In this document: positions 10,399 to 49,637 of the stretch, piece after piece
Position numbering within the stretch: the first letter of the stretch is position 1
Layout of the letters: every line of letters begins with the position of its first letter
Source of the DNA: Faecousia sp.
GTDB taxonomy: Bacteria > Bacillota > Clostridia > Oscillospirales > Oscillospiraceae
Length of the DNA stretch: 64,000 nucleotides
Reading direction: 5' to 3'
Assembly (NCBI GenBank): GCA_045599455.1
Contig: JAZRVX010000131.1
Coordinates: 12,186 to 76,185, forward strand
Notes under the pieces: generated by a model
Databases searched by the model: none
What the model saw: only the letters and a program-made list of their open reading frames with translations
Told to the model about the DNA's origin: nothing
Program-made: the position numbers and the translations under genes

Positions 10399-11550
10399 TC
10401 AGCGAACTGATTTTGCATACTCAGTCGGTGTAATTCCAAACTTCTCCTTAAACTGTCTGGAAAAATGGTGAACAGTCGAATACTGCAACGCAGAAGCAAT
10501 TTCCGTAAAATTCAGATTATTCTCACGAATCATCTGTTTGCTCTCCTGCAGCTTTAAGCGCCGGATATATTCACCGGGTGAAATCTGTAAATTCTTGTGA
10601 AACAAAACCGTCAAATAGCTTGCACTGACATCGGCCACCTGCGCAACACCGGGAACGGTTAGCTTTTCGCGAATATGTTCAGAAATATATTGCTGCGCTT
10701 TACGAATCACTTCATTTTCATTGCGTACAGAGTTAATACCCTGAATTTTTCCTGAACCGGGTGCCGATTCTTCACGCAGCAAATATAAAATCAGGAGTTT
10801 CAGCTCTGCATTGATAACATCACTGGAGAAATCATCTGTTTTCTTTTGTTCACGAAGCATGTTCTGTAATAAGGAAAGTGCAGATTGCGGCATACGAAAT
10901 TTTCGATTATAGAGAGAATCAAGATCTACGCCGGAAATGTCAAACGAAATGGTCACAAAACAAGGCGCAACACCCTGATCCGAATACTGCATATGCCACT
11001 GATCGGGCCCATATACAACAACATCGCCCTGTGTAAGCATCGTGTCCTGCCCTTCAACCACACTATGAAGCTGACCTTTGTCCACATATGTAAGCTCAAT
11101 CATGGGATGGCTCTCACCATTAAATATAAATCCCTGCTCTTTTTCCTGATAGAAGAATGTATAAATTCCATCTATCTTCATACGATTATCGATTCTGAGA
11201 TTATAATTTGCTCGAGTGCCAACACTCTGAGGCATCTCCTTCGCCTTTACTAAAACCGTTGCATCACCCTTAAATGCATTCAGCGCAATATAGACATCCG
11301 GATTGATGGTAACAGTTTTATCCAAATAGTAATGCGAATAGTTCTCTGCATCGGTACTTACCGACAGAACACCGATACCTTTTCCACAGGAGAGCTGCGT
11401 AGCTGACCTCGTCAAGAAAACAGGAATTTCAGACTGCGCAAGTTTTAAGACTGTGGATTCTTCCTTTTTTCCTAAATCTAAAGAAGATGCGCGTTCAGGC
11501 AGAACAAAGCCAAAGCCGCTGAAATTCTCCTGATTCAAATTCTGTATCAT
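10399..11550 (-). CDS. AraC-family transcriptional regulator
   Basis: C-terminal double HTH: LTVPGVAQVADVSASYLTVLFHK...NFTEIASALQYSTVHHFSRQFKEKFGITPTEY. The ~270-aa N-terminal sensor part has no function I can assign. GGGAGGA RBS. Confidence 0.8.
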   Translation of the reverse strand: MIQNLNQENFSGFGFVLPERASSLDLGKKEESTVLKLAQSEIPVFLTRSATQLSCGKGIGVLSVSTDAENYSHYYLDKTVTINPDVYIALNAFKGDATVLVKAKEMPQSVGTRANYNLRIDNRMKIDGIYTFFYQEKEQGFIFNGESHPMIELTYVDKGQLHSVVEGQDTMLTQGDVVVYGPDQWHMQYSDQGVAPCFVTISFDISGVDLDSLYNRKFRMPQSALSLLQNMLREQKKTDDFSSDVINAELKLLILYLLREESAPGSGKIQGINSVRNENEVIRKAQQYISEHIREKLTVPGVAQVADVSASYLTVLFHKNLQISPGEYIRRLKLQESKQMIRENNLNFTEIASALQYSTVHHFSRQFKEKFGITPTEYAKSVR

Positions 11551-11571
11551 GAACTCATCCTCCCAGGAAAC

Positions 11572-11605
11572 AATAATAGGGTCAGCAATCGCTGACCCTA
11601 TTATT
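11572..11605 (-). terminator. terminator downstream of obg
   Basis: 15-bp stem aataatagggtcagc/gctgaccctattatt with a 4-nt loop. On the minus strand it is followed by GTTTCC, so the T-tract is weak. Confidence 0.55.
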
Positions 11606-11633
11606 ATACAACAAAAATCGAAAATGGCAAATA

Positions 11634-12908
11634 TTATCTCAGATAGTCAAACTCAATATCATAAATATCTACAGTGTCGCCATCCTGAATTCCCATTTCC
11701 TCCAGCCGAGAGAAAATACCGTTCTTGCGCAGAAGCATATCAAAATGATTTCTCGCTTCATAGTCATCAAAATTGATGTTTTGCGTCAAGCGTTCGAGCC
11801 ATGTTCCGGTCAAAACCCATGTACTTCCCAGATGCTCAATCAGAACATCCATCGGATCACCGGGCTCGGCGATTTCTTCCACATATTCCGGCTCATAAAT
11901 CGTAACAGGTGGCAGCGTTTTGAGTTTTTCAGCCACAACCTGCATAAGTTTTTTGGTCCCCTGCGTTGTTCCGGCAGATATCTCGTATAATTCGCAGCCG
12001 GCTGCCTCAACAACTGCCCGCAAGCGATTCAGGTTGTCACTTTCAGGATCCATAATATCCGTTTTATTGGCAGCAACAATCATGGGGCGATTGCTTAAAT
12101 CAACAGAATAATTTGCAAGCTCATCGCAAATTGCGTGAAAGTCGTCAACCGGATCTCTGCCCTCACTACCGGATACATCAACCACATGAACAAGCAGTCG
12201 ACAACGGTCAATGTGACGAAGAAAATCATACCCCAAGCCGGCACCTTCAGCAGCACCTTCAATAATGCCGGGGATATCTGCCATAACAAAGGACACGCCT
12301 TCACTGACATAAATTACACCAAGATTGGGAAACAGCGTGGTAAAATGATAATTGGCAATCTTAGGTTTTGCATTAGAAGTAACGGACAGCAAAGTAGATT
12401 TTCCGACATTCGGGAAACCAACAAGGCCAACATCAGCCAGAAGCTTCAATTCCAGAATAATATCTCGTTCCTGCCCCTTCGTACCGGTCTTAGCAAAACG
12501 GGGAACCTGACGGGTTGCAGTGGCATAATGAGAGTTTCCCCAGCCGCCTCGGCCACCTTTTGCAATGACAAAATCCTCGCCTGTGGACATATCCACAATA
12601 ATTGCATTGGACTCAGCGTCACGCACAACCGTTCCTCTGGGCACATCGATAATCAAAGGTTCTCCGCGTTTACCGGACATCATTCTGCCCTGCCCATTCT
12701 GACCGGCAGTGGCAGAATATTTCCGTTTATATCTAAAATCCATCAGCGTAGTCATATTATCATTGACATGCAGAATGACACTGCCGCCATGACCGCCGTC
12801 ACCACCATCCGGGCCGCCGGATGCAACATATTTTTCACGGTGAAATGCCACCGCGCCATCACCGCCTCGGCCTCCGCATACGGTGATTCTAACTTTATCT
12901 ACAAACAT
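11634..12908 (-). CDS. obg: GTPase Obg/CgtA
   Basis: MFVDKVRITVCGGRGGDGAVAFHREKY (Obg fold), GFPNVGKST, DIPGIIEGA, NKTD, and a C-terminal Obg_CT-like tail. AGGAGG RBS. Confidence 0.95.
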   Translation of the reverse strand: MFVDKVRITVCGGRGGDGAVAFHREKYVASGGPDGGDGGHGGSVILHVNDNMTTLMDFRYKRKYSATAGQNGQGRMMSGKRGEPLIIDVPRGTVVRDAESNAIIVDMSTGEDFVIAKGGRGGWGNSHYATATRQVPRFAKTGTKGQERDIILELKLLADVGLVGFPNVGKSTLLSVTSNAKPKIANYHFTTLFPNLGVIYVSEGVSFVMADIPGIIEGAAEGAGLGYDFLRHIDRCRLLVHVVDVSGSEGRDPVDDFHAICDELANYSVDLSNRPMIVAANKTDIMDPESDNLNRLRAVVEAAGCELYEISAGTTQGTKKLMQVVAEKLKTLPPVTIYEPEYVEEIAEPGDPMDVLIEHLGSTWVLTGTWLERLTQNINFDDYEARNHFDMLLRKNGIFSRLEEMGIQDGDTVDIYDIEFDYLR

Positions 12909-12924
12909 AACATCCTCCTGTATA

Positions 12925-12963
12925 CCAAAAAAGGACTGCCGCAGTGAAAATGCAGCAGTCCTT
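12925..12963 (-). terminator. intra-cluster terminator/attenuator between rpmA and obg
   Basis: On the minus strand, stem aaggactgc/gcagtcctt (12963-12955 / 12939-12931) is followed by TTTTGG. Confidence 0.55.
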
Positions 12964-12980
12964 CAGCACAAACAGGTTAA

Positions 12981-13262
12981 TTACTGCTCGTCGTAAACAG
13001 AGCACTTACGACGATCCTTGCCCATACGCTCAAACTTAACAACACCGTTGACCAGAGCGAACAAAGTATCATCCTTGCCGATACCAACATTGGTGCCGGG
13101 ATGGATGTGAGTGCCTCTCTGACGAACGAGGATGTTGCCAGCCAGAACGTGCTGACCGTCTGCACGCTTAACGCCCAGACGCTTGGACTCGGAATCACGG
13201 CCGTTCTTGGTGGAACCGCCGCCCTTATGGTGAGCGAAGAACTGAATACCAATCTTCAGCAT
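12981..13262 (-). CDS. rpmA: 50S ribosomal protein L27 with N-terminal propeptide
   Basis: [37 protein letters not shown]... ATG 13262 is preceded by GGAGGTG. The ORF-track extension to 13367 overlaps prp and is rejected. Confidence 0.95.
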
Positions 13263-13266
13263 GGTG

Positions 13267-13587
13267 TTACACCTCCAAAACTTCAATATAATCAGGATAT
13301 TCATCCCGCAGTTCTGCAAGATAAAGCAGAAGTCCGGCCAGAACCGCCTGAACGGAATCCTCTTCATCGCAAGAAGCGGGAAGTGTCAAAGTGATGCGCG
13401 CATCATCTTTAACACGAACCTTGGCCTTTGCCCCGCAAACATCATTGATGGTTGCTTCGGCCAATCTGACAGCGGATGTAATCGAAGCACAGACAATGTC
13501 TGCTCCCGCTTCAGCATAACCACTGTGACCTGAGATGGAGAATCCAGTGATTCTGTCATCTACAGTAGTAAACTCGCATCTAGTCAT
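13267..13587 (-). CDS. prp: ribosomal-processing cysteine protease Prp
   Basis: 106 aa lying between rplU and rpm[25 protein letters not shown] carries the conserved His/Cys dyad context of the Prp (YsxB) family. Confidence 0.9.
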
Positions 13588-13590
13588 AAA

Positions 13591-13902
13591 TTACAGTGCG
13601 ATCTTGGTGATCTCCACCTTGGTGTAAGGCTGACGATGGCCAATCTTCTTCTTCTCGTTCTTCTTAGCCTTGTACTTCAGAACATCAATCTTCTTGCCCT
13701 TGCCATTCTTAACAACCCTGGCTTCAACGGCTGCACCTGCGACAACGGGAGCGCCAACCTTGGTATTCTCGCCGTCCAGAATGGCCAGAACCTGATCAAA
13801 CTTGACAGTAGTCTCAGCCTCAGCGCCCAGCTTCTCAACGAACAGGACATCACCCTCAGCAACAACATACTGCTTGCCACCGGTCATAATAACTGCTTTC
13901 AT
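13591..13902 (-). CDS. rplU: 50S ribosomal protein L21
   Basis: [25 protein letters not shown]...[11 protein letters not shown]. Confidence 0.95.
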
Positions 13903-14563: not shown

Positions 14564-14639
14564 GGACGATTAGCTCAGCTGGTAGAGCATGCGCTTGACG
14601 TGCGCAGGGTCAGCGGTTCGAGTCCGTTATCGTCCACCA
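14564..14639 (+). tRNA. tRNA-Val (anticodon GAC), CCA encoded
   Basis: Cloverleaf folded by hand. Acceptor GGACGAT/ATCGTCC, D arm GCTC-AGCTGGTA-GAGC, anticodon stem TGCGC/GCGCA with loop TTGACGT, T arm AGCGG-TTCGAGT-CCGTT, then ACCA. Confidence 0.95.
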
Positions 14640-14670: not shown

Positions 14671-14680
14671 ATAAATTTTG

Positions 14681-14708
14681 CCGGGGCTTGAATTAATTCA
14701 AGCCCCGG
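14681..14708. terminator. perfect 28-nt palindrome at 3' end of the GT2-PilZ operon
   Basis: ccggggcttgaatt/aattcaagccccgg. It contains the stop codon of the GT2-PilZ gene (14698-14700). The T-rich tract is only on the plus-strand side. Confidence 0.5.
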
Positions 14709-16926
14709 TATTTTGTATCATTTTCTTTTCCAAATTCTTTTGCGGAATAATATCTGAAATTGCAACATAATCGGGCTGTATAATCTCATAAACATTTTTA
14801 CGGATTCTACTTTTTCTACCTGTAATGATTATTCCGTTTTCCAGTACCAACTCAATCTCCTCAGGAAGATATCGGCTCTGAGCTACTCGAAAACAGTTGT
14901 AATTATAATCCTTCAGGGTTACTTTCCCGGATATACTTTGTGGACATTTCAATTCTTGAGATATGCTGACTCTGGGAAGCTTTCTGCGCTGAAATACCGG
15001 TGCACTTCCCCGCCCATTGCCGTTTACCAGCAAATCATCAAAAGCTCCGCTTGCTCCACGCAGTGTCTGCGGCAATCCCGGTGAACGATCATAAACAATT
15101 TGAAAATAATCCTTCTTACATTCACCATAATCATGGATGCGGAAAGCATATATCCATCGATTTTCTTGTTGATTCACATAAACAATGGATACTTTTATTT
15201 CAGCTTTCAATTGATTTTCCTTTATTTTCAGTGTAGTCAATGCATCCGGGAGAATATATACAGGCTCTTCAAAGCTCACTGCGAGTCCTGAATCCGACAA
15301 ATTGATTGCATTCCCGTGATAGCTTCCGTTATCTGTGCTGACAGTGACTTCACATAGCGCCCGCAGTCGGTGCTCCTTTCTTCTGATTTCTCTGCCATCT
15401 ACAAAGAAAAGTGCCATAACCAGATAATACATATTGCCAATTAGCCAAAATAAAACTACGACCGGCTGGATGGAATTGCTTTCAAACATTTTCACAATAC
15501 ATTTCGCAACTGCGTATACCGAAAGGCACAACAGCATCGCAAAGGGCAGCATATATACAGCATCCCGCCGATTTTTTCCTGTTGCAATGTTCTTTTCGGA
15601 AACATGAAACTTTTTCATAGAAATTCCGACGGTCTCCAGTAATACGGGTACAAGCATAAAAGGAAATAACGCCGTCTCATAAACACCTGTCCATCTTGTA
15701 TTCCTTATATTACGGCTTAAAGCACGCAGCGCCAAATTGGAAGAGATAAACATCGGAAGCCAGAAAATAAGCACTTCTTGCAATGTGCACCGGATAACCA
15801 TAATATCAAAGGCGGCATACAGAATCGGGCTCATAATGTACACCAATCTTTTTAAGGGTGCATACCAGTACCAGACAGATGCCCAATAGTTCAGTTTCTG
15901 GCGAAGGGAAAGCTTTCTCGATAACAAAATGTGCAATTTCCTTCCGCTTTGAATCACCCCTCTTGCCCAACGAACTCTCTGGCGAATCAGTGCAGTCATA
16001 TCGGTCACCGACAATCCACTTGCAAGTGGTTCGTCAATTGCAAGACTGACAAATCCTGCCTTCTGAATCAGAATCCCCGTTGCAAAATCTTCTGTAATAG
16101 AGTCCGTGTAAAATCCACCGACAGCATCCAACGCCGCTCGACTTAAAACCGTGTTGGAGCCGCCGTAGATGACTGAGTTACTCTTTGTTCTTGCAATCTG
16201 AATATCCCGATAAAAATAGTCCTGCTCATTGGGAATTCTTTCTTCGGAATACAAATTAAACTGGAACACATCGGGATTATAAAAACTTTGAGGACTCTGC
16301 ACAAAGCCAAGTTCTATACGCTTTTTCTCTCCCCTGCTTAGATTCTTTCGTTCCGCGTCGATGAAATAAGGTATTGTTTTCATTAAAAATGTGCTTCTCG
16401 GTATCATGTCCGCATCAAAAGTCGCAATATACGGTGAAGAAGAGTTCCTGAGTGCATAATTCAGATTCCCGGCTTTTGCCCCGGTTCTGTCCAATCTGGA
16501 TAAATAATGAACGCCAAAACTCAAAGCCAGATTTCGCATTTCTTCTCGATTTCCGTCATCGCAAAGATATATATGCACTTTCTGCTTATCCGGATAATCC
16601 ATATGGCAGCACCCATTGATGGTTTTATACACCAGCTCTGGTGCTTCGTTATATGTCACCACAAATACATCTACATCCGGATATGTTTGTCCGGATATAT
16701 CCGGACAAACATATCCGTTACAGCGGTACATACTGCGATAGTGAATGATTGCCTCAAAAAAGCCCAACGCCTCGATGCAAAGTAACGAAGCACCGACAAT
16801 CACAGAAAGCAGGCCGTATCCAAAAGGGATGGTAAAAAGAATACGCCATAAAATATAGCTGACAGAAAACAGAATATTCAGCATAAATATCAGCTTATCT
16901 ATGTACAATTTTCCGTTTTTTATCAT
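14698..16926 (-). CDS. processive family-2 glycosyltransferase with C-terminal PilZ domain (BcsA-like exopolysaccharide synthase)
   Basis: Multi-TM protein. GT2 motifs DVFVVTYNE, CDDGN, FDADM, SITEDFATG (TED), IRQRVRWARG (QxxRW, ~15961-15995) and FHVSEK (FxVTxK-like). PilZ motifs RKEHR (RxxxR, 15367-15381) and NLSDSG ((D/N)xSxxG, 15286-15303). Confidence 0.85.
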   Translation of the reverse strand: MIKNGKLYIDKLIFMLNILFSVSYILWRILFTIPFGYGLLSVIVGASLLCIEALGFFEAIIHYRSMYRCNGYVCPDISGQTYPDVDVFVVTYNEAPELVYKTINGCCHMDYPDKQKVHIYLCDDGNREEMRNLALSFGVHYLSRLDRTGAKAGNLNYALRNSSSPYIATFDADMIPRSTFLMKTIPYFIDAERKNLSRGEKKRIELGFVQSPQSFYNPDVFQFNLYSEERIPNEQDYFYRDIQIARTKSNSVIYGGSNTVLSRAALDAVGGFYTDSITEDFATGILIQKAGFVSLAIDEPLASGLSVTDMTALIRQRVRWARGVIQSGRKLHILLSRKLSLRQKLNYWASVWYWYAPLKRLVYIMSPILYAAFDIMVIRCTLQEVLIFWLPMFISSNLALRALSRNIRNTRWTGVYETALFPFMLVPVLLETVGISMKKFHVSEKNIATGKNRRDAVYMLPFAMLLCLSVYAVAKCIVKMFESNSIQPVVVLFWLIGNMYYLVMALFFVDGREIRRKEHRLRALCEVTVSTDNGSYHGNAINLSDSGLAVSFEEPVYILPDALTTLKIKENQLKAEIKVSIVYVNQQENRWIYAFRIHDYGECKKDYFQIVYDRSPGLPQTLRGASGAFDDLLVNGNGRGSAPVFQRRKLPRVSISQELKCPQSISGKVTLKDYNYNCFRVAQSRYLPEEIELVLENGIIITGRKSRIRKNVYEIIQPDYVAISDIIPQKNLEKKMIQNTGA

Positions 16927-18098
16927 ATTCCATCCTCCTTATAGAATTGGAAAGAATTCTCATTCAGATTAAACGGATATACTTCAAAGATAATATAGTC
17001 GTAGGTTTTATCCTTTATTACAGTTTCAAGATTTACAGTCTTTCCAACCTCCAGATTGTAAATTGTATCGATTTTCCAAAACATCGGAGCAAGGAAACAA
17101 ATAACGGGACTAAAATATGAGTCATGTATAATCAAAGCTGTCCGATTATTTCTGGCAGTTAGATTGACAATTCTATTCTGCTCCTTAATTCCATCCAGAT
17201 ATACACTGTATGAAGATCGTTTATAAATATCTTTCTCTTCCAAATATTCCAGATTGATAAGTGTTTGCTTTATATCTCCACGCGTTATTTCTTCTTTATC
17301 TCCCGAAAGAACCATTCGTTCATAGGTACCGAAAAACTTGGGACACAAAACCGAAAACTCATCCACACCCGAAAAAGCTCTTCCCGCCTTGCGCCCCATA
17401 GAACCAAGCATATTTTTATCGGCAGATAACTCATCATAATAATTTAGATTTAAATAATAATCTGTCGGATCAAGATTATCTCCAAACTGTTTATGAATCG
17501 TTTCTGCCAACTGTTTTGTAGCTTCAAAAGCCGTTTTGACTGTCCAATGGTGATCCGTTTTGTAAAATTCAGCATTATCCATATCGGACAAGTCCAGTGT
17601 CTTTACCTCGAACCGATTCAGATACATTAACAATTCATCTATCTTATCACCGGGATAATTTAACCATTCCGTATCATTGGTTGTAGATTTCACCAAGTCA
17701 TATTTTCCCGGCGGCATAACAAACAGTAGCTTTGTTTCCTTAGATTCCGCAAACTTCTGAAGCCTTGCTATCCGCTGTGCGAAGGATAAAACCGAAATAT
17801 CGTCATTTCGATAAAAACCACTGTAGTGCAAATATCCATTAGAATCTTTGAAAAAAGCAAAATCAGAGATTTCTTGTTTCCCCAGAAGTGACTGAAATGA
17901 TGAAAACCACTCCAAAAGACTCATACGAAAAGGTAAGCTTTCGTAGTATTCCTCCTGCCGAAATGGACAATTCTGAAAAATTCTCTGTGCAAAATATACG
18001 CAAGAATAGACCCACATTGGGAGCAATGATAAAATCAACATGACTGAAAAAACCATCTGCATCGAAACATATCGAACCTTCGCCGTCACTGTATGCAT
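16923..18098 (-). CDS. DHHW-family protein (AlgJ/AlgX-like SGNH polysaccharide O-acetyltransferase component)
   Basis: N-terminal TM MVFSVMLILSLLPMWVY and a literal DHHW motif in FYKTDHHWTVKTAFEA. ATG 18098 has GAGG 7 nt upstream. ATGA overlap with the downstream synthase gene. Confidence 0.75.
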   Translation of the reverse strand: MHTVTAKVRYVSMQMVFSVMLILSLLPMWVYSCVYFAQRIFQNCPFRQEEYYESLPFRMSLLEWFSSFQSLLGKQEISDFAFFKDSNGYLHYSGFYRNDDISVLSFAQRIARLQKFAESKETKLLFVMPPGKYDLVKSTTNDTEWLNYPGDKIDELLMYLNRFEVKTLDLSDMDNAEFYKTDHHWTVKTAFEATKQLAETIHKQFGDNLDPTDYYLNLNYYDELSADKNMLGSMGRKAGRAFSGVDEFSVLCPKFFGTYERMVLSGDKEEITRGDIKQTLINLEYLEEKDIYKRSSYSVYLDGIKEQNRIVNLTARNNRTALIIHDSYFSPVICFLAPMFWKIDTIYNLEVGKTVNLETVIKDKTYDYIIFEVYPFNLNENSFQFYKEDGI

Positions 18099-18107
18099 CA
18101 ACAAACC

Positions 18108-19505
18108 TCAGAAGTCAAAATAGATAAAGGGATTGTAAGAGCCGTTTACCAGATAACTAATACTAAGCCATGTAATAAGCACCATGCATATTCCTGTCAA
18201 TCCTCGGACTACAATATACTCATTTGCTAACGGGAATCTTTTCCTAATCGGGAAGAGGCATATCAGACCAATTACAAAAAAGAATAAATTCTCTTTCACG
18301 AGCATACAAGCCAGATTGCTGAAAAAACCGTTATAGTTAAGTCCGAACATATTCCGAAAAAAAATTCCTGCCTGATATAAATCTTTGGAACGAAAAAGAA
18401 CCCATCCGAAATTAACTATCAGTAGTGTATATGCTCTCTTCAAACCGGTTGACGAAAGGTTATCCGGGAATCCTGTTAGTCGCTCCAGAAGTTGAAAGCA
18501 GAAATAATAGACGCCCCAAAAAATAAAAGTCCAGTTCGCACCATGCCAAAGACCGGTTAATAGCCATACAATCAAAAGATTGCGAATGGTTCTATCCATA
18601 CTTACATTGCGATTGCCCCCCAGGGGGATATATACATACTCCCGGAACCAATTTGTCAAAGAGATGTGCCACCGCGACCAGAAATCACGAATTGAAAGTG
18701 CATAGTATGGGTACATAAAATTTTCGGGAATTAAAAACCCAAAGCATTTACCCAGTCCGATTGCCATATCCGAGTATCCCGAGAAGTCATAATAAATTTG
18801 AAGTGAATAGGCAATACTTCCAACCCATGCCAAGGTAGCCGGAACCGGATAGTAGTCCGTCCCGATAGAAGACCAGTTAAAAACCTTATCGGCAATCGCA
18901 CCGAAATTATTCGCAAGAAGAATTTTTTTAGAAAAGCCTATGGAAAAGCGAAACAATCCTTTTGTGAATAAGTCAAAGCTTTCTCTACGGGAATCTATCT
19001 GATTTGATACATCCGAGTATTTCAAAATCGGGCCGGCAATCAGCTGTGGAAAAAATGACAGATACAATCCGGTCTTAAATAATCCCGGGGGACTTTCCGG
19101 AGTACGGTACATATCTACGAGCAAACTGATAGCCTGAAAAGTGTAAAACGAAATTCCGATGGGTAGGTGAATCTCGGAAATCTGTGGAAATCCAGCCGTG
19201 GAACTTGCAAAGTTATAATACTTGAAAACAAATAATCCGAATAAATTTACACTGACTGCAAGCCAAAGTATTATACGCTTTCGTTTCAAATCTTGTACTT
19301 TATATAATAAATTTGAAAAACCTGAATTCATGACAATATTTGCAATCAACAGCCAAACATATTGAGGTTCACCATAGGCGTAAAATAAAATGCTTGCAAT
19401 AAGAAGAACGGAATTGGATAACCACCGCACACGAAATGATGCAAAGTACATCATAAAACCCGTTGGTAAAAACAGGAATAAAAACTCTAAACTTGAAAAA
19501 AGCAT
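18108..19505 (-). CDS. MBOAT-family membrane O-acyltransferase (AlgI/DltB/PatA-like)
   Basis: 465-aa polytopic protein. The conserved MBOAT histidine region is FWSRWHISLTNWFREYVYIPLGGNR. AGGTGG RBS. Confidence 0.9.
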   Translation of the reverse strand: MLFSSLEFLFLFLPTGFMMYFASFRVRWLSNSVLLIASILFYAYGEPQYVWLLIANIVMNSGFSNLLYKVQDLKRKRIILWLAVSVNLFGLFVFKYYNFASSTAGFPQISEIHLPIGISFYTFQAISLLVDMYRTPESPPGLFKTGLYLSFFPQLIAGPILKYSDVSNQIDSRRESFDLFTKGLFRFSIGFSKKILLANNFGAIADKVFNWSSIGTDYYPVPATLAWVGSIAYSLQIYYDFSGYSDMAIGLGKCFGFLIPENFMYPYYALSIRDFWSRWHISLTNWFREYVYIPLGGNRNVSMDRTIRNLLIVWLLTGLWHGANWTFIFWGVYYFCFQLLERLTGFPDNLSSTGLKRAYTLLIVNFGWVLFRSKDLYQAGIFFRNMFGLNYNGFFSNLACMLVKENLFFFVIGLICLFPIRKRFPLANEYIVVRGLTGICMVLITWLSISYLVNGSYNPFIYFDF

Positions 19506-19512: not shown

Positions 19513-21111
19513 CTAGATTCTGCGCATCACGATAATTCCTGTCAAAATTATTATGAAAAACGAAAGATAGAAAAAAGCCTGTCCCTGTGAGAATATCGAC
19601 GAGTCCACATTGGCTTCTCGCAGTAAATTACTGAGTCCCTCCTGTATATAAGCACCATGCCGCGCAAGATAAACCTTTATAATACGCAGCTCTTGCTGAT
19701 AATCGGTATTGAATCGGGTCAATGTTTCACCATCAATCGTATAGGGCTTCAACACATAGTTCCTCCCGTTACGGGTCTGCGGACTTTCGTAATCATCCTT
19801 CCACCGATACCATTCGCGAACTTGAGCCGAGTTCAGATATTGTGTGGCTTCTTCAATCAGCATATTTATATAGTTATCCGACAGGAAGTGTCTTCTAAGC
19901 TCTGCGTAGCGTTTTTTCAAGAATTTTACAAAGGAACGGTCTTTCACAAGCTCCGTGTAAAATGTTCTTGTTTGGAATGCAATGGACTCAGGGTTCATTT
20001 CTTCTGCATAGTAATTATTCATCGCCTGGTCAAAATCCCAAACCGGACCGATATTCAGTTTTCCTCCGGGTGATTTATAATAATAAGTCGAATGCAGCCC
20101 TGCATCATAATTCCCAAAGAATTCGTTCACCAAAAAATAATCAATGAAGCTCTCTCTGTCAATTACTTTAGGGTATGTGAGAAATACATCCTTTTTATCA
20201 GAATAAATTACCTGTTCCACGGAGGAAAAATCTTTTTCAATATAGGAAATAATTTCCTCATTCAGTTTACCGGATGTTGGATATTTGATTCCCATCCATG
20301 TGTCCGTAAATCCATTAACTCGGCCGTATGTTTCAAGCATCGTATCAAAATGCGTATATCGGTCTCTGCGGAGAATATAGCCAGTATAATGATTCTTTTC
20401 GTCGTACTCAGGAATGTCAACTTGTTGCTCTCCTTTGGAAACCGCACTTTGCAGGAGGTAAACTCCCATATATTTTGCCATCCCGCCTGTTTCTTTTAGA
20501 ATTACTTCACAGAATCTGCACTCCGGTGCAAATGCGCTGCCGCCAATCTCCCATGCAATACGATAGGCGAGGTAATTTCGGAGCATGCTTTTATCCGCCA
20601 AGCTCCCGCACAACACCCAGCGCTCTCCTTTTTCCATATCAAGAAGAGAATGAGCCTTCTCCGATTTTAGATAATACTGCGGTTTGTCGAAAGCTATCGA
20701 AGTATGCCCACGCCGTTTGGCACAAATTGAGATACGCATTGCAGGAGTGTTCTTCAAATATGCCCTTCGTCCGCTCGGTTCGATGATTTCAAGGGATCCA
20801 GTTACCCACGGATTAACTGAATCATCCACAGTTTCATTTCCATGTGAAAAGGACTTATATAACGGAGGCTCGTTTTCAAAAGACAGCACCACAAGGGGAA
20901 GATTGCTTGAGAACAAGGCATCCGCATAGTATTCCTCATTCAGGTGCACTAAAGGATCCGTTGCGCTTTCATCTTTTTGTAATGTAGGATAGCGATAAGA
21001 TTGACTTGTTTCTTTTGCAATCGTCTCCCCGAGCTGCGCAGCCAAGAGTAACCACGCCGCCAACACAAAACATTTGCAAACTTTTCCTGCCATTTTATTG
21101 ATTAATTTCAT
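19513..21111 (-). CDS. CotH kinase-family protein, predicted extracytoplasmic with C-terminal membrane anchor
   Basis: Signal/anchor CFVLAAWLLLAAQLG and C-terminal TM FFYLSFFIIILTGIIVM. CotH-type segments LRNYLAYRIAWEIG, HSTYYYKSPGGKLNIGPVWDFDQAMNNYY. The start could instead be ATG 21093. Confidence 0.8.
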   Translation of the reverse strand: MKLINKMAGKVCKCFVLAAWLLLAAQLGETIAKETSQSYRYPTLQKDESATDPLVHLNEEYYADALFSSNLPLVVLSFENEPPLYKSFSHGNETVDDSVNPWVTGSLEIIEPSGRRAYLKNTPAMRISICAKRRGHTSIAFDKPQYYLKSEKAHSLLDMEKGERWVLCGSLADKSMLRNYLAYRIAWEIGGSAFAPECRFCEVILKETGGMAKYMGVYLLQSAVSKGEQQVDIPEYDEKNHYTGYILRRDRYTHFDTMLETYGRVNGFTDTWMGIKYPTSGKLNEEIISYIEKDFSSVEQVIYSDKKDVFLTYPKVIDRESFIDYFLVNEFFGNYDAGLHSTYYYKSPGGKLNIGPVWDFDQAMNNYYAEEMNPESIAFQTRTFYTELVKDRSFVKFLKKRYAELRRHFLSDNYINMLIEEATQYLNSAQVREWYRWKDDYESPQTRNGRNYVLKPYTIDGETLTRFNTDYQQELRIIKVYLARHGAYIQEGLSNLLREANVDSSIFSQGQAFFYLSFFIIILTGIIVMRRI

Positions 21112-21778
21112 CCGGCTGTTTTACAAGACTGACAGAACGCACGCCTTCCATTATCGACAGCCGGTTTAAGCAGGATCCACTCTTCTCTGCATCCGCAAGT
21201 ACACGGTCGCAAAGCTCATAAATCAGCTCACAGGGATTGCCATTTTCTCCGGTAGTTTGGAGGCGGATAACCGCTTTTTGTAAAAACATAGCCTCAACAC
21301 AGTGCATTACATCCTCTGCCATTTCAGGATCTACATGAATAATCAGAATGAGACGGCTATTCTCCTTTACAAAACCAAAGAGCACCAAAAATATGAAAAT
21401 TGCGGTTGTGCCCATGGCCGCAATCAAATAATCCGAAACGCCGCAGCATATACCGATTGCAATCGCCCAGAATATATATGCTGTATCCCGAGTATCTTTC
21501 ACAGCTGTTCGGAATCGGACTATGGACAGCGCACCAACCATGCCGAGTGAGAGGGCAATATTATTCCCGATTACATTCATAACGAGAGTCGTTATCAATG
21601 TAAGCATGACAAGTGTCATATTGAATCGACGACTGTAAACACTGCCGCCGTGGGAAATACGATAAGATATGTACAAGACACATGCCAGTAAAAATGAAAT
21701 CAGAAAGTTTAATAACAGCTGCTTAGGCGAAAGCTCCCCATAGGTATTGTACAGAAGATTATATATCTCACTTTTCAT
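21095..21778 (-). CDS. DUF4956-type polytopic membrane protein
   Basis: About 4 TM segments (LLLNFLISFLLACVLYI, LVMLTLITTLVMNVIG, ALSLGMVGALSIVRFRTAVKDTRD, IFWAIAIGICCG) plus a soluble tail. It occupies the usual position between the VTC and CotH genes. ATG 21778 lies 1 nt after the upstream stop. Confidence 0.7.
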   Translation of the reverse strand: MKSEIYNLLYNTYGELSPKQLLLNFLISFLLACVLYISYRISHGGSVYSRRFNMTLVMLTLITTLVMNVIGNNIALSLGMVGALSIVRFRTAVKDTRDTAYIFWAIAIGICCGVSDYLIAAMGTTAIFIFLVLFGFVKENSRLILIIHVDPEMAEDVMHCVEAMFLQKAVIRLQTTGENGNPCELIYELCDRVLADAEKSGSCLNRLSIMEGVRSVSLVKQPDEINQ

Positions 21779-21779
21779 A

Positions 21780-22475
21780 CTAAGCACTCTCCCCTTTTGT
21801 AATCATGCGCGCTCTCATGTATTTACTGCACGAAACTCTGCACTCATCCGATACCGATACCGCCTGTTTGATATCCGATGTCAGAAACTCATTAAACTTA
21901 ACTTCCATTGTAATTTCCCCGGGAGCAGAAACGGGGTACATAATAATGTCAGAATTAAAAAGCTGGAAATTGCTCTCAGTTGCGTATATCTCTCTGTCAA
22001 ATGTAATTCTGGTATCATTAAGCAGGCCGCAAAACGCCTCTCTTCTATACTCAATAATAACCTTCGGGCGGAGTAGCTGTGCTTTGAACATATAATAAAG
22101 CCACGGACATAACACCTCATGCCGCGATAACAGGAAATCCGCTTTACCTGCTATCAGCTGCATAGCCTCTGTTTTTGAAATAATGATAGAAAACTTTTTC
22201 TGATTGTCACCGCTTTTTTGCTTAATCTCAAGCTTAGCTGTTTTGTCAGATGGACTGTAAATTCTGAGACGAATTTTTCTTCTATCATAAAGACCGTCTT
22301 CTTTGTCGCAAAAATCCTTGTCATAAGGCGTGTCAAAGTAGAGGGAACGAACATGATACCCCCCGATATTCTGATGTACATCCGGTAATGTAAACGGAAG
22401 CAATGCGGCGCGTATTCGGCAATACTGCAGTTCGGTAACAGCGTATTTTTGCTCTTTTCTCGAAACTTCCGACAT
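21780..22475 (-). CDS. VTC-domain protein (triphosphate-tunnel, polyphosphate-polymerase-like)
   Basis: EQKYAV, HVRSLYFDTP, RRKIRLRIY, AKLEIKQKSG, IIEYRREAF and TRITFDREI form alternating basic/acidic beta-strand motifs typical of CYTH/VTC tunnel enzymes. No TM segment. GGGAGGA RBS. Confidence 0.75.
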   Translation of the reverse strand: MSEVSRKEQKYAVTELQYCRIRAALLPFTLPDVHQNIGGYHVRSLYFDTPYDKDFCDKEDGLYDRRKIRLRIYSPSDKTAKLEIKQKSGDNQKKFSIIISKTEAMQLIAGKADFLLSRHEVLCPWLYYMFKAQLLRPKVIIEYRREAFCGLLNDTRITFDREIYATESNFQLFNSDIIMYPVSAPGEITMEVKFNEFLTSDIKQAVSVSDECRVSCSKYMRARMITKGESA

Positions 22476-22985
22476 TTAAGCGTCCTCCCTGTCAGAAAGA
22501 AGCAATAAATCCTCATAGGTATAGAACTGTCTTTTATTCCTGGTACGCAGATGATTGCACACTGTCAGAATCACAATGCACAGTCCCAGAGACACAATAC
22601 TCAACAAATAATTATGATAAAAGCACAAAACAGCAGCTGGAAAACAGCAGCAGGAAAGTACTTTCATCATAGCATGATACTCCTTTTGAATTTTACGGTT
22701 CAATAATCTTTCTATAGTTTCCAGAACCAAAACTCCAAGAAACGCGAATATCGTAAATCCAAGTACGCAAAGCTGAGCGTCTACGCCGATGTTTCTGCAA
22801 ACAAAGACCCCGGAGCTACCTAATAGCAAGATAAAAACGAAATAAAGGAAAGCTCTTATAATTGATGTTCCAAGAAAACACGGAAGCAAAGAAAGTGCAC
22901 AAAGTACACCTGGTAATAATTTCCGGTTCAGCAAAACATTTAACAAGTTGCTCTGATAAGAAATCAGATTATGCAGCAATCTCAT
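22476..22985 (-). CDS. hypothetical 4-TM membrane protein, first gene of operon
   Basis: No motif I recognise. Hydrophobic segments GVLCALSLLPCFLG, LYFVFILLLGSSGVFV, LCVLGFTIFAFLGVLVL and SIVSLGLCIVILTV. ATG 22985 has GGTGA 6 nt upstream. Its stop abuts the VTC start. Confidence 0.5.
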   Translation of the reverse strand: MRLLHNLISYQSNLLNVLLNRKLLPGVLCALSLLPCFLGTSIIRAFLYFVFILLLGSSGVFVCRNIGVDAQLCVLGFTIFAFLGVLVLETIERLLNRKIQKEYHAMMKVLSCCCFPAAVLCFYHNYLLSIVSLGLCIVILTVCNHLRTRNKRQFYTYEDLLLLSDREDA

Positions 22986-23108
22986 ATTCATTCACCTCTT
23001 TCAACAATCGAAACAATACTCCATTTCGGATGCGAAAAAAAGCGAAGCAAGGTTCGTACATTTCACAGCATCGAATATGTTTAATTTCCTATATGCACTA
23101 AGTTTTTC

Positions 23109-23137
23109 TTGACATAAAAACTACAATGTGATAAAAT
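23109..23137 (+). promoter_or_regulatory. sigma-A promoter of the tRNA(CAU)-tRNA-Trp pair
   Basis: Consensus TTGACA (23109-23114), 17-nt spacer, TGA-TAAAAT (23132-23137). Confidence 0.65.
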
Positions 23138-23167
23138 ATTAACTGTGGTCAGAAACCATGTGATGAC

Positions 23168-23244
23168 GGGCCTTTAGCTCAGTTGGTCAGAGCCTCCGGC
23201 TCATAACCGGATAGTCCTGGGTTCGAGTCCCCGAAGGCCCACCA
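23168..23244 (+). tRNA. tRNA with CAU anticodon (Met by anticodon; resembles lysidine-modified tRNA-Ile2), CCA encoded
   Basis: Acceptor GGGCCTT/AAGGCCC, anticodon stem TCCGG/CCGGA, loop CTCATAA. G1-C72 is paired, so it is not an initiator. The GG.CCTTTAGCTCAGTTGGT.AGAGC...GGCTCATAACC pattern is like Bacillus tRNA-Ile(CAU). Confidence 0.9.
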
Positions 23245-23274
23245 GTTTACTTAGGTAATTTACCTTTTAGATAT

Positions 23275-23350
<76 letters not shown>

Positions 23351-23630: not shown

Positions 23631-24098
23631 CTAGTCCAACTCGTCCTCGTCAAAAGTGAACTCAAGCGTTTCGCCACACTTGGGGCAAGTCATAGAACCG
23701 GCCTCAAGGGTCTCCTCGTCAAAAGTAATCACTTCGCCGCAAGCGCACTGGACTTCATAGATAGTGGTATCCTCATCGCCGAAGTCGAATCCTTCCTCAT
23801 ACTCCTCGTCTTCATCTTCGTCGTAATCATCATCCAGCTCATCATAGTCGTCAAAATCGTCGTAGTCCTCATCGTCCTCATCAAGGATATAATCCTCGAT
23901 GGCATCCAGATCTTCTTCGATTTCGTCCAGCTCGTCAGAAATAGCAATGGTGGTATCTTCAATATCCGTGACCTTCTTGCATACATCGCCAAGCAGGTCA
24001 ACGATTGCAGAAATCATCTTGCCCTCATCGGACTCGGTATTCAGCTTCAGGCCATCCATAAGACCCTTCAAATAGGCGGATCTCTCAGAGATAGTCAT
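23631..24098 (-). CDS. highly acidic protein with C-terminal zinc-ribbon-like Cys cluster
   Basis: The central ~70 aa are almost only D/E/Y (DEDDEDYDDFDDYDELDDDYDEDEDEEYEE). The C-terminus is VQCACGEVITFDEETLEAGSMTCPKCGETLEF. AGGAGG RBS. Lies immediately downstream of efp. Confidence 0.6.
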   Translation of the reverse strand: MTISERSAYLKGLMDGLKLNTESDEGKMISAIVDLLGDVCKKVTDIEDTTIAISDELDEIEEDLDAIEDYILDEDDEDYDDFDDYDELDDDYDEDEDEEYEEGFDFGDEDTTIYEVQCACGEVITFDEETLEAGSMTCPKCGETLEFTFDEDELD

Positions 24099-33600: not shown

Positions 33601-36600
33601 TTACTGCGCAATGCCAAGCGCCTGCTCCATCTGGTTTAAATCCAGCCGCAGCAGCTTACTGACCCCCTGCTCTTGCATGGTGACACCGTAAAGAACATCG
33701 GAAGCCTCCATTGTTCCTCGGCGGTGGGTGATGACAATAAACTGGGTATCTTTCAGGTTGTGCAAATATCCGGCAAATCGGTCAACATTTCTGTCATCCA
33801 AAGCTGCGTCAATCTCGTCAAGCAAGCAGAACGGCGTGGGACGAACCTTCAGGATTGCGAAGTACAACGCTGTTGCCACAAATGCTTTCTCACCGCCGGA
33901 GAGGAGCGTTATCGTTTTTACCTGCTTTCCGGGGGGCTGCACACGAATTTCAATTCCGCAGGTCAAGGGATTCTCAGGGTCTTCCAGAACAAGCTGTCCC
34001 TTACCACCGCCGAACATCTCCTCAAATACTTTTCCGAAATAATGGTCAATCTTTGCAAACTCAGTCACAAAAATTGTCGTCATTTCTTTCGTGATTTCTT
34101 TGATAATATTCTCAAGCTCCTGCTTGGAATTCAGCACATCATCACGCTGGCCGACCAAATAGCTATAACGTTCATTCACACGAGCATACTCTTCAATGGC
34201 ACCTAGATTCGGCGTGCCGAGCGCAGAAATCTTGCGCTTCAACTCACCTATCTGGCGATTACCTGCGCTGATGGATTCAATTTCACCGCGCAGAGGCTCT
34301 GCCGTGCCGGGTGTCAGGCCGTAGGAGTCCCAAAGCTTGTCGATAATCTGTTTTTCCTCCATGGAGGTTGCAAGCTTTTTCTGCTCCAGAAGTGCACAGG
34401 AACGCTCCATGGTAAGAATATCCTTGTTCTTTTCCTGTGCATCCCGCTCCGCTTTGGTCTTGGCGGCCTCTGCCTCCGCACGAAGCGCAAGAACATCTCG
34501 AACCTGCTGCTCCATGCCCGCAGTCATGTCCGCATTTTCACTCTGTCGCTGCTTGAGGTCTTCAATTTCTTTCTCAATCCGAACAGAATCTGCCTGAATG
34601 GATTCAATCAAAGCCTCTTTCTTGGAGCGGTCACCCGCCATATCCGACTGTAGCGACTTCAAATCTGCTACATGGGTCAAAACAGTGCCCCGTTCAGCTT
34701 CCAGCGCCGCTTCTTCAGTTCTGCAATCGGCAATCTTTTGCGTAATGTCCGTTGAGGCGGCAGTGGCATCGCTCTGACTTCCTTCGAGAGTAGTCAGTTC
34801 AGAACGAATTTGAATCAAGTCGCGGGTATATAGAGAAACTTTCGCTTTCTGTGCGGCAAGACGCTCGCGGTCTGAGGCCACACGCAGCTTTAGTGCATCC
34901 CGCTCTGTAACTGCTGCACTTTGTGCTTCGGAAATTGCCTGAAGAATAATCTCATGCTGCTTGACCTGCCCTTCCAAGCGAAGGACCTGATCTTCGGCTT
35001 CACGGAGCTGGTCCTGAGCCGCTGTAATCTGGAATGCAACCTGATCGTAAAGTCGGCGTGCTTCCTGAACGGCAGCCTGTGCAGCAAAGACATCAGTCTC
35101 CAAGCGACTCGCTTGATTTTCCAGCTTTTCAAGCTCATTTGTGCGGGAGAGAATACCCGCCTCCCTGTTCACGGAGCCGCCGGTCATGGAACCTCCGGGA
35201 TTCATAACCTGACCGTCCAGTGTGACAATCTTGAATCGCCGACTGTACTTCTGGCTCATGGAAATGGCAGCATCCAAATCCGTAACAATCACGGTTCTTC
35301 CAAGGAAGTTTTCCACGACTTCACGGTAAGCATTGTCGCACTTCACAAGTTTGGAAGCAATGCCGACAAATCCGCGGCAGGATTCGAGTCCCGATTCCTG
35401 CAAATCCCGTCCTCTTGTTGTATTTAGAGGAATAAATGTTGCGCGGCCTTTGTCCGTTCTTTTCAGGAAAGAAATAGCCGCCTTACCATCGGCTTCTGTG
35501 CTGACAACAACCTGCTGCATAGCAGCACCGAGGGCAATCTCTATGGCAAGGGTATAGTTGTCTTCCGTACGAATCAGGCGAGAAACAGGGCCGTGAATAT
35601 TGCGCAGTGCGCCACGCTCTGCCTCCTGCATGACTGCTTTGACAGACTTCTGATAACTGTCATAATCCCGCTCCATTGCACGGAATGCGCGGAGCTTGGC
35701 ATTAACAGAATCAAACTTTGATGTAAGTTCACGCAGCCCACTTTCAGCCGTTTCTTTATTCTTTTGCCTGCTCTTCTGACGCAGAGTATAACCGCCAATG
35801 GTATTGTTCGCGGCAACAACCTGCTCCTGCGCTTCTTTCAAAAGGCTGCGGCTATTTGCAAGGGCGTTCTCCGCCTCTTCTTTTCTCGCATCCCCGGAGG
35901 TAATGTCCAAATTAAGCTGTTCAAACCGGGATGCATACAACTCAACGCTTTCTTCCAAAGCGCGGATATCTGCCTGAGAACCTGCAAGCTCCGCAGACAA
36001 GATGCTCTCCTTACCGCGAAGTTCCAAATATTGACGGGTCAGGCCCTGCGCATTGGCAGTCATTGCAGATAACTCCAGCTGCAAATCGGAAATCTCGGTT
36101 TTCTTCTCAGAAAGTGCCGAGTCAATTTCCGACACACGCTCCATCGTCTGCTCAATTTGCACTGCAATGCCGCCGGAGCGGTTGTCCTGACTTTGCAGTT
36201 CCTCCTCAATGCGGGCAATATTCTCCTCATTGTTCGTCAGGTTGCCGCGCAGGACTGCCATCTGTCCTTCCAACTGCTGGTGGGTACTCTGATACATAGA
36301 AGCCTTCAGGCGCACGGACTCAAGCTGCGCATCCTTCTCATGCAATGCTTCACCCAGAGATTCTGCAAGTCGGTATAGACTGTCCAAATCATCATGCGCC
36401 TGCTGAAGCACAAAGGAAGCCGAGGCATAGTCCTCCTCTGCCTTCTGCGTGCGCTCACTCAGAGATGCAAGGGTATCCAGCCAGACGGCAACCTCCACAC
36501 CCTGCAAAGTTTCTTTCAATGATAAATACTTCTTGGCCTTCTCAGACTGCTCTTTCAGCGGCTCAATCTGAAGCTCCAATTCGGAAACCTTGTCACCGAT

Positions 36601-37170: not shown

Positions 37171-37204
37171 AGCCAAACCTCATAATCAAAAAATGAATCA
37201 GTTT

Positions 37205-41531: not shown

Positions 41532-41535
41532 GAAA

Positions 41536-43788: not shown

Positions 43789-43831
43789 TTTATAACCTCA
43801 TATTTTACCGTATTGCTCATACAAAAGGCAT

Positions 43832-44992: not shown

Positions 44993-45005
44993 AGCACTCT
45001 CCTAA

Positions 45006-47332: not shown

Positions 47333-47337
47333 ATATT

Positions 47338-49636: not shown

Positions 49637-49637
49637 C

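Follow-up and report, generated by a model that had tools for sequence, protein, structure and literature searches.

Operons for the exopolysaccharide Pel in Gram-positive bacteria (streptococci, clostridia and bifidobacteria) have been described as carrying, contiguous with the pel genes, accessory genes for CotH, a 'poly-phosphate polymerase', a DUF4956 protein and a DUF4832 protein (Whitfield et al. 2020). The genes SIR_1594-1592 of Streptococcus intermedius, which encode members of the first three of these families, have been modelled and deleted, and the authors of that study could not find synteny of the trio outside pel loci (S. intermedius study, mBio 2025). Here we analysed a stretch of 64,000 nucleotides from Faecousia sp. 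(contig JAZRVX010000131.1), called the window throughout, which holds a trio of genes for a VTC-domain protein, a DUF4956 protein and a CotH-family protein. This trio does not stand alone but forms part of what appears, from the genes around it, to be a synthase-dependent exopolysaccharide operon of the cyclic di-GMP (c-di-GMP) type. The gene set itself has already been published, and what is new is a context outside pel for a published, biochemically uncharacterised module.

The three open reading frames named in an initial annotation of the window were found at their places, all on the minus strand and each with a Pfam match to the expected family: the VTC-domain protein of 231 aa (21780-22475; PF09359, E 3.7e-33), the DUF4956 or MgtC-like membrane protein, which has 227 aa counted from its ATG (21095-21778; PF16316, 54.4 bits), and the CotH-family kinase-like protein of 532 aa (19513-21111; PF08757, E 2.3e-42). 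The limits given to the locus, 19513-22475, enclose the trio correctly but omit one upstream gene and three downstream polysaccharide genes, the trio being genes 2-4 of a tightly packed seven-gene minus-strand operon that runs from 22991 to 14698. Gene 1 (22476-22991, minus strand) encodes a polytopic membrane protein of 171 aa with no Pfam or NCBIfam match. Gene 5, which begins 7 nt past the CotH stop codon, encodes an MBOAT O-acyltransferase of the CcsH / WssH / DltB-like kind (18108-19505, minus strand), which matches Pfam MBOAT with E 4.5e-29 and, short of the cut-off of that model, NCBIfam DltB-like with 146 bits. It is followed by an AlgX / DHHW-type SGNH-like O-acetyltransferase resembling CcsI (16923-18104, minus strand; Pfam ALGX, E 9e-9), with the DHHW motif at residue 184 and an N-terminal hydrophobic segment as anchor. 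The last gene (14698-16926, minus strand) encodes a BcsA/CcsA-like processive synthase of glycosyltransferase family 2 (GT2) with a C-terminal PilZ domain, 742 aa long, which matches the Pfam GT2 families and PilZ as well as TIGR03030 CelA (371 bits, below its cut-off); the synthase motifs are in place (DxD at 171, TED at 278, QRVRW at 316) and the PilZ domain is intact (RxxxR at 512, NxSxxG at 542). This gene content is what would be expected of a Clostridial ccs-type acetyl-cellulose locus, and we predict the operon to be one. The position of the trio inside a polysaccharide operon shifts the likely substrate of the CotH protein from the 'cell-surface fractions' of the initial annotation to the polysaccharide or its matrix.

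The expectation that the three genes would be co-conserved in relatives was borne out from both directions. In a scan anchored on the VTC gene, which took one genome per species, covered at least 597 relatives and examined the best 80 loci, the order VTC-DUF4956-CotH was kept in 73 of the 80 genomes (three of the seven exceptions are contig ends), with median intergenic gaps of 18 and 12 nt within the trio. Conversely, among metagenome loci anchored on CotH and having enough upstream sequence, the VTC-DUF4956 pair lies directly upstream in 62 of 63; the automatic count was 60 of 63, and loci L115 and L122 have the pair and had failed an overlap threshold alone. The synteny of the trio is near-obligate both ways. 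Hosts named in the best 80 VTC loci are mostly Gram-positive and comprise Clostridia, Erysipelotrichia, Enterococcus, Coriobacteriia and a few metagenome-assembled genomes labelled otherwise.

The operons that carry the trio fall into more than one type. In the acetylated cellulose-like type to which the window belongs (type A), the trio is followed by MBOAT, AlgX/DHHW and BcsA-PilZ genes, often with a GH5 gene (CcsZ-like, after the synthase) and sometimes with an exported hydrolase of the metallo-beta-lactamase (MBL) fold; the VTC-anchored set has 22 loci with both MBOAT and BcsA and 24 with a BcsA-like match. Cellulose-like operons lacking the acetylation genes, in which CotH directly abuts BcsA, account for 13 metagenome loci. 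The second main type (type B), found in about 45 genomes and 39 metagenome loci, is like the operons for poly-N-acetylglucosamine (PNAG) and typically contains a PgaC/IcaA-like GT2, a PgaB/IcaB-like deacetylase, a HEAT-repeat protein, a protein of about 725 aa with no family assigned, a Cache-GGDEF protein and a GGDEF-EAL protein. We found no description of such a PNAG-like trio operon in the literature. The idea that type-B loci are pel loci in disguise was rejected on the identity of the synthase, a PgaC/IcaA-like GT2 with a PgaB/IcaB-like deacetylase, and none of the annotated conserved neighbour clusters of the trio is of glycosyltransferase family 4 (GT4, the PelF type) or of the PelG type. 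The cellulose-like and PNAG-like trio loci contradict the stated absence of the trio outside pel. The occurrence of the same trio with cellulose-like and PNAG-like operons, and with Pel operons as published, points to a surface function that is independent of the polymer, and the trio is a portable module common to at least three polysaccharide systems rather than a peculiarity of pel.

Some details of these loci are worth recording in their own right. In type-B examples such as L029 (4108-8787) and L053 (7512-20669) the protein of about 725 aa is exported, the HEAT-repeat protein is anchored at its N terminus and the PgaB-like deacetylase has SLH domains. In about ten loci the AlgX and BcsA genes are separated by one for an exported MBL-fold hydrolase resembling ComEC, and an exported Metallophos/purple-acid-phosphatase-like protein occurs in two trio loci; examples of such phosphoesterase-type insertions are L076 (7086-7934), L073 (17843-19708) and L041 (7773-9590).

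Duplication of the trio as a whole has also taken place. In one member of the Lachnospiraceae that is very common in the gut, two complete trios flank the cellulose genes (second trio at 17657-20687 in L081-L084), and locus L012 has the same arrangement (second trio at 10767-13708). The CotH protein of the second trio carries Fn3_assoc, CHB_HEX_C and Flg_new_2 modules and has no C-terminal transmembrane (TM) helix; in the assembly collection, a DUF4956 sequence of this organism occurs in 3182 blocks. Because each duplicated CotH has a VTC and a DUF4956 gene of its own, the three proteins would seem to form a specific partnership rather than to draw on a shared pool.

Examination of the VTC protein gave the clearest indication of a biochemical activity. 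The Pfam VTC match (115.5 bits against a cut-off of 23) spans residues 6-222 of 231, and all six motifs quoted in the initial annotation are present in the translation (EQKY 8-11, RSLYFD 43-48, KIRLRIY 67-73, LEIKQK 82-87, IEYRREA 141-147, RITFDRE 156-162). A hydropathy scan, from which we read the topology of all the proteins discussed here, revealed no hydrophobic segment, in agreement with the cytoplasmic location proposed for it; DUF202-type TM helices and the SPX domain are both missing from the protein in the Pfam search and the scan. Homologues are numerous: a word-indexed search returned 1654, under the source name 'polyphosphate polymerase domain-containing protein', and an exhaustive profile search returned 10,870 clusters at 50% identity with E<=1e-3, 1,155 of them with E<=1e-30. 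An AlphaFold2 model built from a 40-sequence alignment (predicted local distance difference test score, pLDDT, 91.9; predicted template modelling score, pTM, 0.88) consists of long antiparallel strands and helices, and in Foldseek searches of the PDB its top 12 matches are all VTC subunits. The best is yeast Vtc4 (3g3r/3g3q; E 2.3e-13, TM-score 0.72-0.74, about 18% sequence identity), after which come the non-catalytic tunnel domains of Vtc2/Vtc3 and then E. coli ygiF and CYTH-type enzymes (E 2e-9 or worse); ygiF triphosphatase and class IV adenylate cyclases are among these structural neighbours. A profile search of PDB sequences likewise retrieved Vtc4/Vtc2 chains (best E 1.1e-5) and no CYTH enzyme, the sole non-VTC chain being a YEATS-domain protein at an insignificant E of 0.17.

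The residues of Vtc4 that bind triphosphate and are needed for polyphosphate synthesis are K200, R264, R266, K281, Y359, R361, S457 and K458, E426 binds Mn2+, and the inactive Vtc2/Vtc3 depart from Vtc4 at K458 alone (VTC cryo-EM paper). Alignments with HMMER and hhalign place K10, R69, R71, K85, Y143 and R145 of the window protein at K200, R264, R266, K281, Y359 and R361, respectively, so that six of nine Vtc4 residues with a need in polyphosphate synthesis shown by mutagenesis are identical, and all six are invariant or near-invariant in 40 homologues. The C-terminal third of the protein aligns poorly to Vtc4, where a long Vtc4 insertion intervenes, and in hmmsearch this third did not align to Vtc4. 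Within it, E191 (MEVK) pairs with Vtc4 E426 (LEVK) in a weak hhalign match of 21 columns. The tripeptide S217-K218-Y219 is invariant to near-invariant in the 40 homologues and may correspond to S457-K458-F459 of Vtc4, a fit by motif and spacing alone. The Vtc4 sequence used in both comparisons is confirmed for residues 197-392 by the PDB alignment and for the remainder solely by its agreement with published residue numbering. A further peculiarity is Glu8, which is invariant, faces the tunnel by strand register and occupies the position of Vtc4 Thr198, giving RxExK, half of the ExExK motif of hydrolytic tunnel (CYTH) enzymes. Taking these results together, the tunnel fold and the conserved basic residues foreseen in the initial annotation are both supported, and the protein is predicted to be a soluble cytoplasmic triphosphate-tunnel enzyme of the Vtc4 (polyphosphate polymerase) type that is apparently catalytically active.

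The CotH protein appears to be an enzyme as well. It matches Pfam CotH at 146.1 bits (cut-off 23.8) over residues 133-488, as do all 40 members of its clade. Met7 is near-invariant in the alignment, so that the start is probably at 21093, giving 526 aa. In the 532-aa numbering there is an N-terminal signal or anchor at 7-32 and a C-terminal TM helix at 509-532, and the positive residues at both ends indicate that the body of the protein is extracytoplasmic. An N-terminal hydrophobic segment is present in 66 of 67 clade members, 23 of which also have the C-terminal TM helix; the outward-facing topology that had been proposed for CotH is therefore a feature of the clade. Against solved structures the profile of the 40-member clade found CotH of Bacillus cereus (5jd9, E 9e-8) over the N-lobe alone; a single-sequence search with the whole protein and a profile search with the C-lobe gave no match, and a hit of a C-lobe fragment to a TPR structure was discarded as spurious. 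Mutation of D228 or D251 has been published to inactivate the kinase CotH of Bacillus subtilis. When the clade profile was aligned by hhalign to B. subtilis CotH (probability 95.6, E 1.2e-8), D336 of the window protein fell on D228 (NYD) and D359 on D251 (WD), the B. subtilis sequence used (362 aa, D228 in NYD, D251 in WDYD) agreeing with the literature in length and numbering. Both aspartates are invariant in the 40 clade sequences. Of the catalytic residues whose presence the initial annotation had made a condition of its proposal, both aspartates are thus kept, and the extracytoplasmic CotH is apparently an active kinase-fold enzyme. At the position of B. subtilis Asn233, five residues past the catalytic Asp, the clade associated with exopolysaccharide operons has in addition an invariant Ser (Ser341; minus-strand codon at about 20089-20091).

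Two membrane proteins accompany these putative enzymes. The DUF4956 frame reaches back to a GTG at 21787, and the database copy (P0121) begins at the ATG at 21778 and has 227 aa. Its DUF4956 score of 54.4 bits exceeds the Pfam cut-off of 30.6, MgtC stays below its own (27.3 against 31.4), and the NCBIfam MgtC/SapB model gives 21 bits against 214. The protein has 4-5 hydrophobic segments and more than 8000 close homologues. A stretch of 18 residues, V69-I86, is fully invariant (family consensus VIGNNIALSLGMVGALSI), and the basic motif RFRTAxKDxRD is conserved save for two variable positions and one near-invariant residue. An AlphaFold2 model of moderate confidence (pLDDT 73) shows five helices in 18-134 followed by a beta-alpha-beta-beta-alpha-beta domain at 142-221. 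Foldseek matched this C-terminal domain alone; its best hits, weak at E of about 5e-3, are the C-terminal domains of MgtC from Pseudomonas aeruginosa and Mycobacterium tuberculosis (7qa5/2lqj), after which ACT and NikR-type domains follow, all of them weak, and a sequence search of the PDB retrieved no relative. By profile and by model the protein is a DUF4956 member, MgtC-like but a distant relative of MgtC.

The 171-aa protein of gene 1 has 4-5 hydrophobic segments and its stop codon abuts the VTC ATG. A polytopic protein of 180-430 aa always precedes VTC in type-A loci, and an hhalign comparison of the 171-aa protein with the positional equivalents of 8 loci (probability 91.8, E 7.6e-7; common C-terminal motif RxFxTY(D/E)DL) assigns it to a family that occupies the position just before VTC in cellulose-type loci of relatives. 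Six of the 150 best VTC representatives are longer than 400 aa, and two of the six, the metagenome proteins P0335 and P0388, consist of a polytopic membrane domain, a low-complexity linker and a C-terminal VTC domain; that membrane domain resembles the upstream small-protein family at one short motif alone. Unless they are gene-calling artefacts, these fusions would physically tie the tunnel enzyme to the membrane. Fusions of VTC to DUF4956 or to CotH were sought among the same six long proteins and rejected, four having low-complexity non-membrane N-terminal extensions and two the polytopic membrane domain.

What might such a set of proteins do? The trio together with the small upstream membrane protein can tentatively be regarded as a portable accessory module of synthase-dependent exopolysaccharide operons in single-membrane bacteria, a generalization whose chances we place a little below even. 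Its task would be to make phosphoryl chemistry possible on the outer side of the membrane. The Vtc4-like enzyme would dock on the DUF4956 protein, the 171-aa protein or both, and would build a phosphoanhydride from cytoplasmic ATP, most likely polyphosphate. The polyanion would pass outward, driven by the membrane potential (outside positive), and CotH, which would have no ATP pool of its own outside, would use it as a donor in phosphorylating (or polyphosphorylating) the growing polysaccharide or a partner in the matrix or wall, standing beside the synthase at the place of a BcsB/CcsB-type partner. We favour, without holding it to be probable, a scheme in which a phosphoanhydride donor (polyphosphate or other) forms at the membrane and then reaches, on the outside, a CotH that phosphorylates polysaccharide or matrix. 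Such a chain of donor supply is likewise the simplest model for the assembled facts, though somewhat more likely to be wrong than right. In its favour are the Vtc4-like fold and residues, the invariant CotH aspartates, the close linkage and co-duplication of the trio, the membrane-domain fusions and the secreted or anchored phosphoesterases inserted in some of the operons. The more specific version, a PPK-independent polyphosphate synthase-exporter feeding an extracytoplasmic CotH that phosphorylates or polyphosphorylates biofilm polysaccharides (cellulose-like, PNAG-like, Pel), is on the unlikely side. We infer the identity of the product as polyphosphate, its export and the part played in this by DUF4956, as well as the donor of CotH and the acceptor, and a channel role for DUF4956 is a conjecture.

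Several observations weigh against the supply of a donor across the membrane. To our knowledge, no kinase of the protein-kinase-like fold uses polyphosphate as donor, and the N-lobe motifs that the clade shares with the ATP-using CotH of B. subtilis are conserved. The equivalences to E426 and S457/K458 of Vtc4 rest on a weak alignment and on motif spacing, Glu8 may mean that the VTC protein hydrolyses rather than polymerises, and the SPX domain is absent. The DUF4956 protein showed no similarity to VTC channel subunits or to the TM helices of Vtc1/Vtc4 in PDB sequence and Foldseek searches. Of the 'VTC-like membrane machine' of the initial annotation, the Vtc4-type tunnel enzyme stands, but DUF4956 is no counterpart of the VTC channel, and the likeness is therefore one of analogy and not of homology. 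The MgtC relatives of DUF4956 are known as regulators, not as transporters, and our reading of the literature found no enzymatic activity reported for any member of the trio. Genetic data from S. intermedius also count here (mBio 2025): deletion of the VTC gene left aggregation normal, deletion of the DUF4956 gene raised Pel and deletion of cotH lowered it, and in sputum medium the DUF4956 and CotH mutants both showed reduced aggregation. From a linear supply chain one would expect the same phenotype for all three deletions, and these phenotypes do not fit it.

The same data make a regulatory module a serious rival. In such a module the DUF4956 protein, through a cytoplasmic ACT-like domain, and the tunnel enzyme would sense or adjust phosphate or ATP status and tune the synthase, CotH would be an outside protein kinase acting on matrix, wall or synthase-partner proteins, and nothing would be exported via DUF4956. 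To the divergent Pel levels and the silent VTC deletion can be added the resemblance of DUF4956 to MgtC in sequence (below cut-off) and in C-terminal fold, the Salmonella MgtC acting on the F1Fo ATPase and on PhoR (both statements on MgtC function, this one and that above, as cited in the S. intermedius mBio 2025 paper), the abundance of PilZ, Cache-GGDEF and GGDEF-EAL proteins in the operons, and the fact that the demonstrated activity of CotH is limited to phosphorylation of protein Ser/Thr. Regulation alone, however, leaves unexplained the phosphoryl donor of an extracytoplasmic kinase, the apparent retention of the full Vtc4 catalytic set including the Lys that is absent from Vtc2/3, the provision of a separate VTC and DUF4956 for every duplicated CotH and the fusion of VTC to membrane domains, and we judge it unlikely.

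A different possibility is that polyphosphate is itself a matrix product, made and exported by VTC and the membrane proteins, which cross-links or coats the polysaccharide as extracellular DNA does for Pel, with CotH merely a binding anchor or adhesin. Pel and PNAG become cationic upon partial deacetylation, and the trio is found with Pel and with PNAG-like operons that encode a PgaB-like deacetylase; acetylated cellulose is neutral, which makes cross-linking less obvious in the operon of the window. The Vtc4-like fold and residues would suit this role, and CotH homologues do carry carbohydrate- or wall-binding modules (Fn3_assoc, CHB_HEX_C, SH3), yet the invariance of the catalytic aspartates in 40 diverse members argues for catalysis. 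Extracellular polyphosphate made independently of PPK1/PPK2 has been reported in the B. cereus group, where finding its source was called a major goal (2026 preprint); the same authors state that the group has no VTC4 homologue, and its source of polyphosphate must then be something else. We consider a purely structural role of this kind improbable.

Least probable of all, in our estimation, is that the tunnel enzyme is a triphosphatase, a nucleotide cyclase-like or another CYTH-type enzyme whose small product or depleted substrate is read by the ACT-like domain of DUF4956, since, for all that Glu8 restores half of the hydrolytic ExExK, that ygiF triphosphatase and class IV adenylate cyclases are among the structural neighbours, and that ACT-domain proteins (ACT domains bind small ligands) are among the C-terminal matches of DUF4956, both sequence (E 1e-5, with no CYTH match) and structure (E 2e-13 against 2e-9 or worse) clearly put Vtc4 nearest, Pfam assigns VTC and not CYTH, and the Vtc4-specific Lys458 position appears to be kept.

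With respect to the surroundings of the operon, the synthase gene has at its 3' end a GC-rich palindrome that forms a hairpin (14679-14710, strand not assigned; 14-pair stem with 8 GC pairs) and is likely the operon terminator, common to a convergent tRNA-Val gene (14564-14639, plus strand). At the other end, tRNA-Met and tRNA-Trp genes (23168-23350, plus strand) diverge from the operon just upstream of it, and the intervening leader or promoter region (22992-23167, minus strand) has an AGAGGTG Shine-Dalgarno sequence before the ATG at 22991; no Rfam family, c-di-GMP riboswitches included, was found in this leader. The operon is bracketed by tRNA genes at both ends, and GC is 0.39-0.43 over 14-24 kb against 0.44-0.54 over most other parts of the window, two features that could reflect acquisition of the operon. 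Elsewhere, a run of about 14 genes at 38033-54664 (minus strand) resembles a Wzx/Wzy-type capsule or exopolysaccharide locus, with several GT4 and GT2 genes, a Polysacc_synt flippase, a UDP-N-acetylglucosamine 2-epimerase, an NAD-dependent epimerase and a polysaccharide deacetylase; together with the ccs-type operon it gives the organism at least two polysaccharide systems within 40 kb. Adjoining that run is a gene for an APH-family phosphotransferase of 440 aa (54838-56160, minus strand). Just upstream of efp, a 155-aa protein (23631-24098, minus strand) is extremely acidic in its central part, which is rich in D and E, and ends in a pair of CxxC motifs resembling a zinc ribbon, and the largest open reading frame of the window encodes 1191 aa (33601-37176, minus strand).

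To the published accessory set the present analysis adds its generality across polysaccharide systems, the reciprocal synteny, the co-duplication of the trio, a fourth membrane partner, a map of catalytic residues and the peculiarities at Glu8 and Ser341, and hence concrete residues for mutation and a concrete set of partners. The questions it touches are how a kinase-fold enzyme could work outside the cell where there is no extracellular ATP, whether bacteria have a VTC-type polyphosphate polymerase independent of PPK1/PPK2 and with it a route for polyphosphate to the outside, and what role the 'extra' genes of Gram-positive biofilm-polysaccharide operons play. Secreted and cell-surface proteins of bacteria widely carry CotH domains, and we know of none with an identified substrate. 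If donor supply proved true, no way for a bacterium to power a kinase outside its membrane would have been described before it, and the product would be a new class of phosphate-modified exopolysaccharide, in organisms that include very common gut Lachnospiraceae. The question raised for the B. cereus group, where extracellular polyphosphate comes from, is one that the trio could answer in other Gram-positives.

The comparison with known systems places the locus between several of them. As in the pel accessory set, the three families are encoded side by side in the window and go with a synthase-dependent exopolysaccharide operon; unlike in the pel set, this operon is of the BcsA/MBOAT/DHHW kind, the trio is not contiguous with pelDEA(DA)FG and DUF4832 is missing from the seven genes, and where the CotH of the pel set has an FN3 domain that of the window has a C-terminal TM anchor. 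The closest match for the polysaccharide genes is the ccsZABHI system (Scott et al. 2020), with which the window shares CcsA (GT2 and PilZ), CcsH (MBOAT) and CcsI (DHHW), lacking a homologue of the GH5 protein CcsZ and any recognisable CcsB (no direct sequence comparison with CcsB having been made). CotH sits directly before MBOAT, at the place of CcsB, and has the topology described for CcsB, with two terminal TM helices and an extracellular body; the description of the ccs system makes no mention of VTC, DUF4956 or CotH.

The CotH protein of the window shares with Bacillus CotH (5jd9/5jda) its Pfam family, the N-lobe motifs and both catalytic aspartates. In contrast to the latter, which passes from the mother cell to the spore coat, it is predicted to be exported and membrane-anchored and is encoded in an exopolysaccharide operon; it is extended at the N terminus by a region of about 100 residues and has Ser in place of Asn233, with no CotB/CotG-like substrates encoded nearby. 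DUF4956 resembles the MgtC/SapB family in having a hydrophobic N-terminal domain and a C-terminal ACT-like domain, and differs in that Pfam puts it in a separate family and that in this clade it is always paired with a VTC enzyme. By analogy alone, phosphoethanolamine cellulose (BcsG), Fam20B and POMK are cases of enzymes on the far side of a membrane that put a phosphate-containing group on a polysaccharide or glycan. The group transferred by BcsG comes from a membrane lipid and the Golgi kinases use imported ATP, neither with a tunnel enzyme. CotH is distantly related to kinases of the Fam20 type. Stalk-forming Zetaproteobacteria encode a CotH-domain protein within or close to a polysaccharide cluster, and an adjoining conserved cassette of that cluster includes an ATP/ADP antiporter, a hint that a donor supply of their own is a general need of extracytoplasmic CotH proteins.

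Lastly, the yeast VTC complex and the window have in common the tunnel fold, six triphosphate-binding residues and a cytoplasmic catalytic domain beside membrane proteins, to which some relatives of the trio add a tunnel domain fused to a polytopic membrane domain. Unlike the yeast complex, the trio has no SPX and no DUF202-type TM domain, its DUF4956 is unrelated to Vtc1 and Glu8 replaces Thr198; its partner protein is kinase-like and extracytoplasmic, and its genes lie in a polysaccharide operon. The cell exterior, to which the trio would direct its product, is topologically equivalent to the lumen of the yeast vacuole, where VTC delivers polyphosphate.

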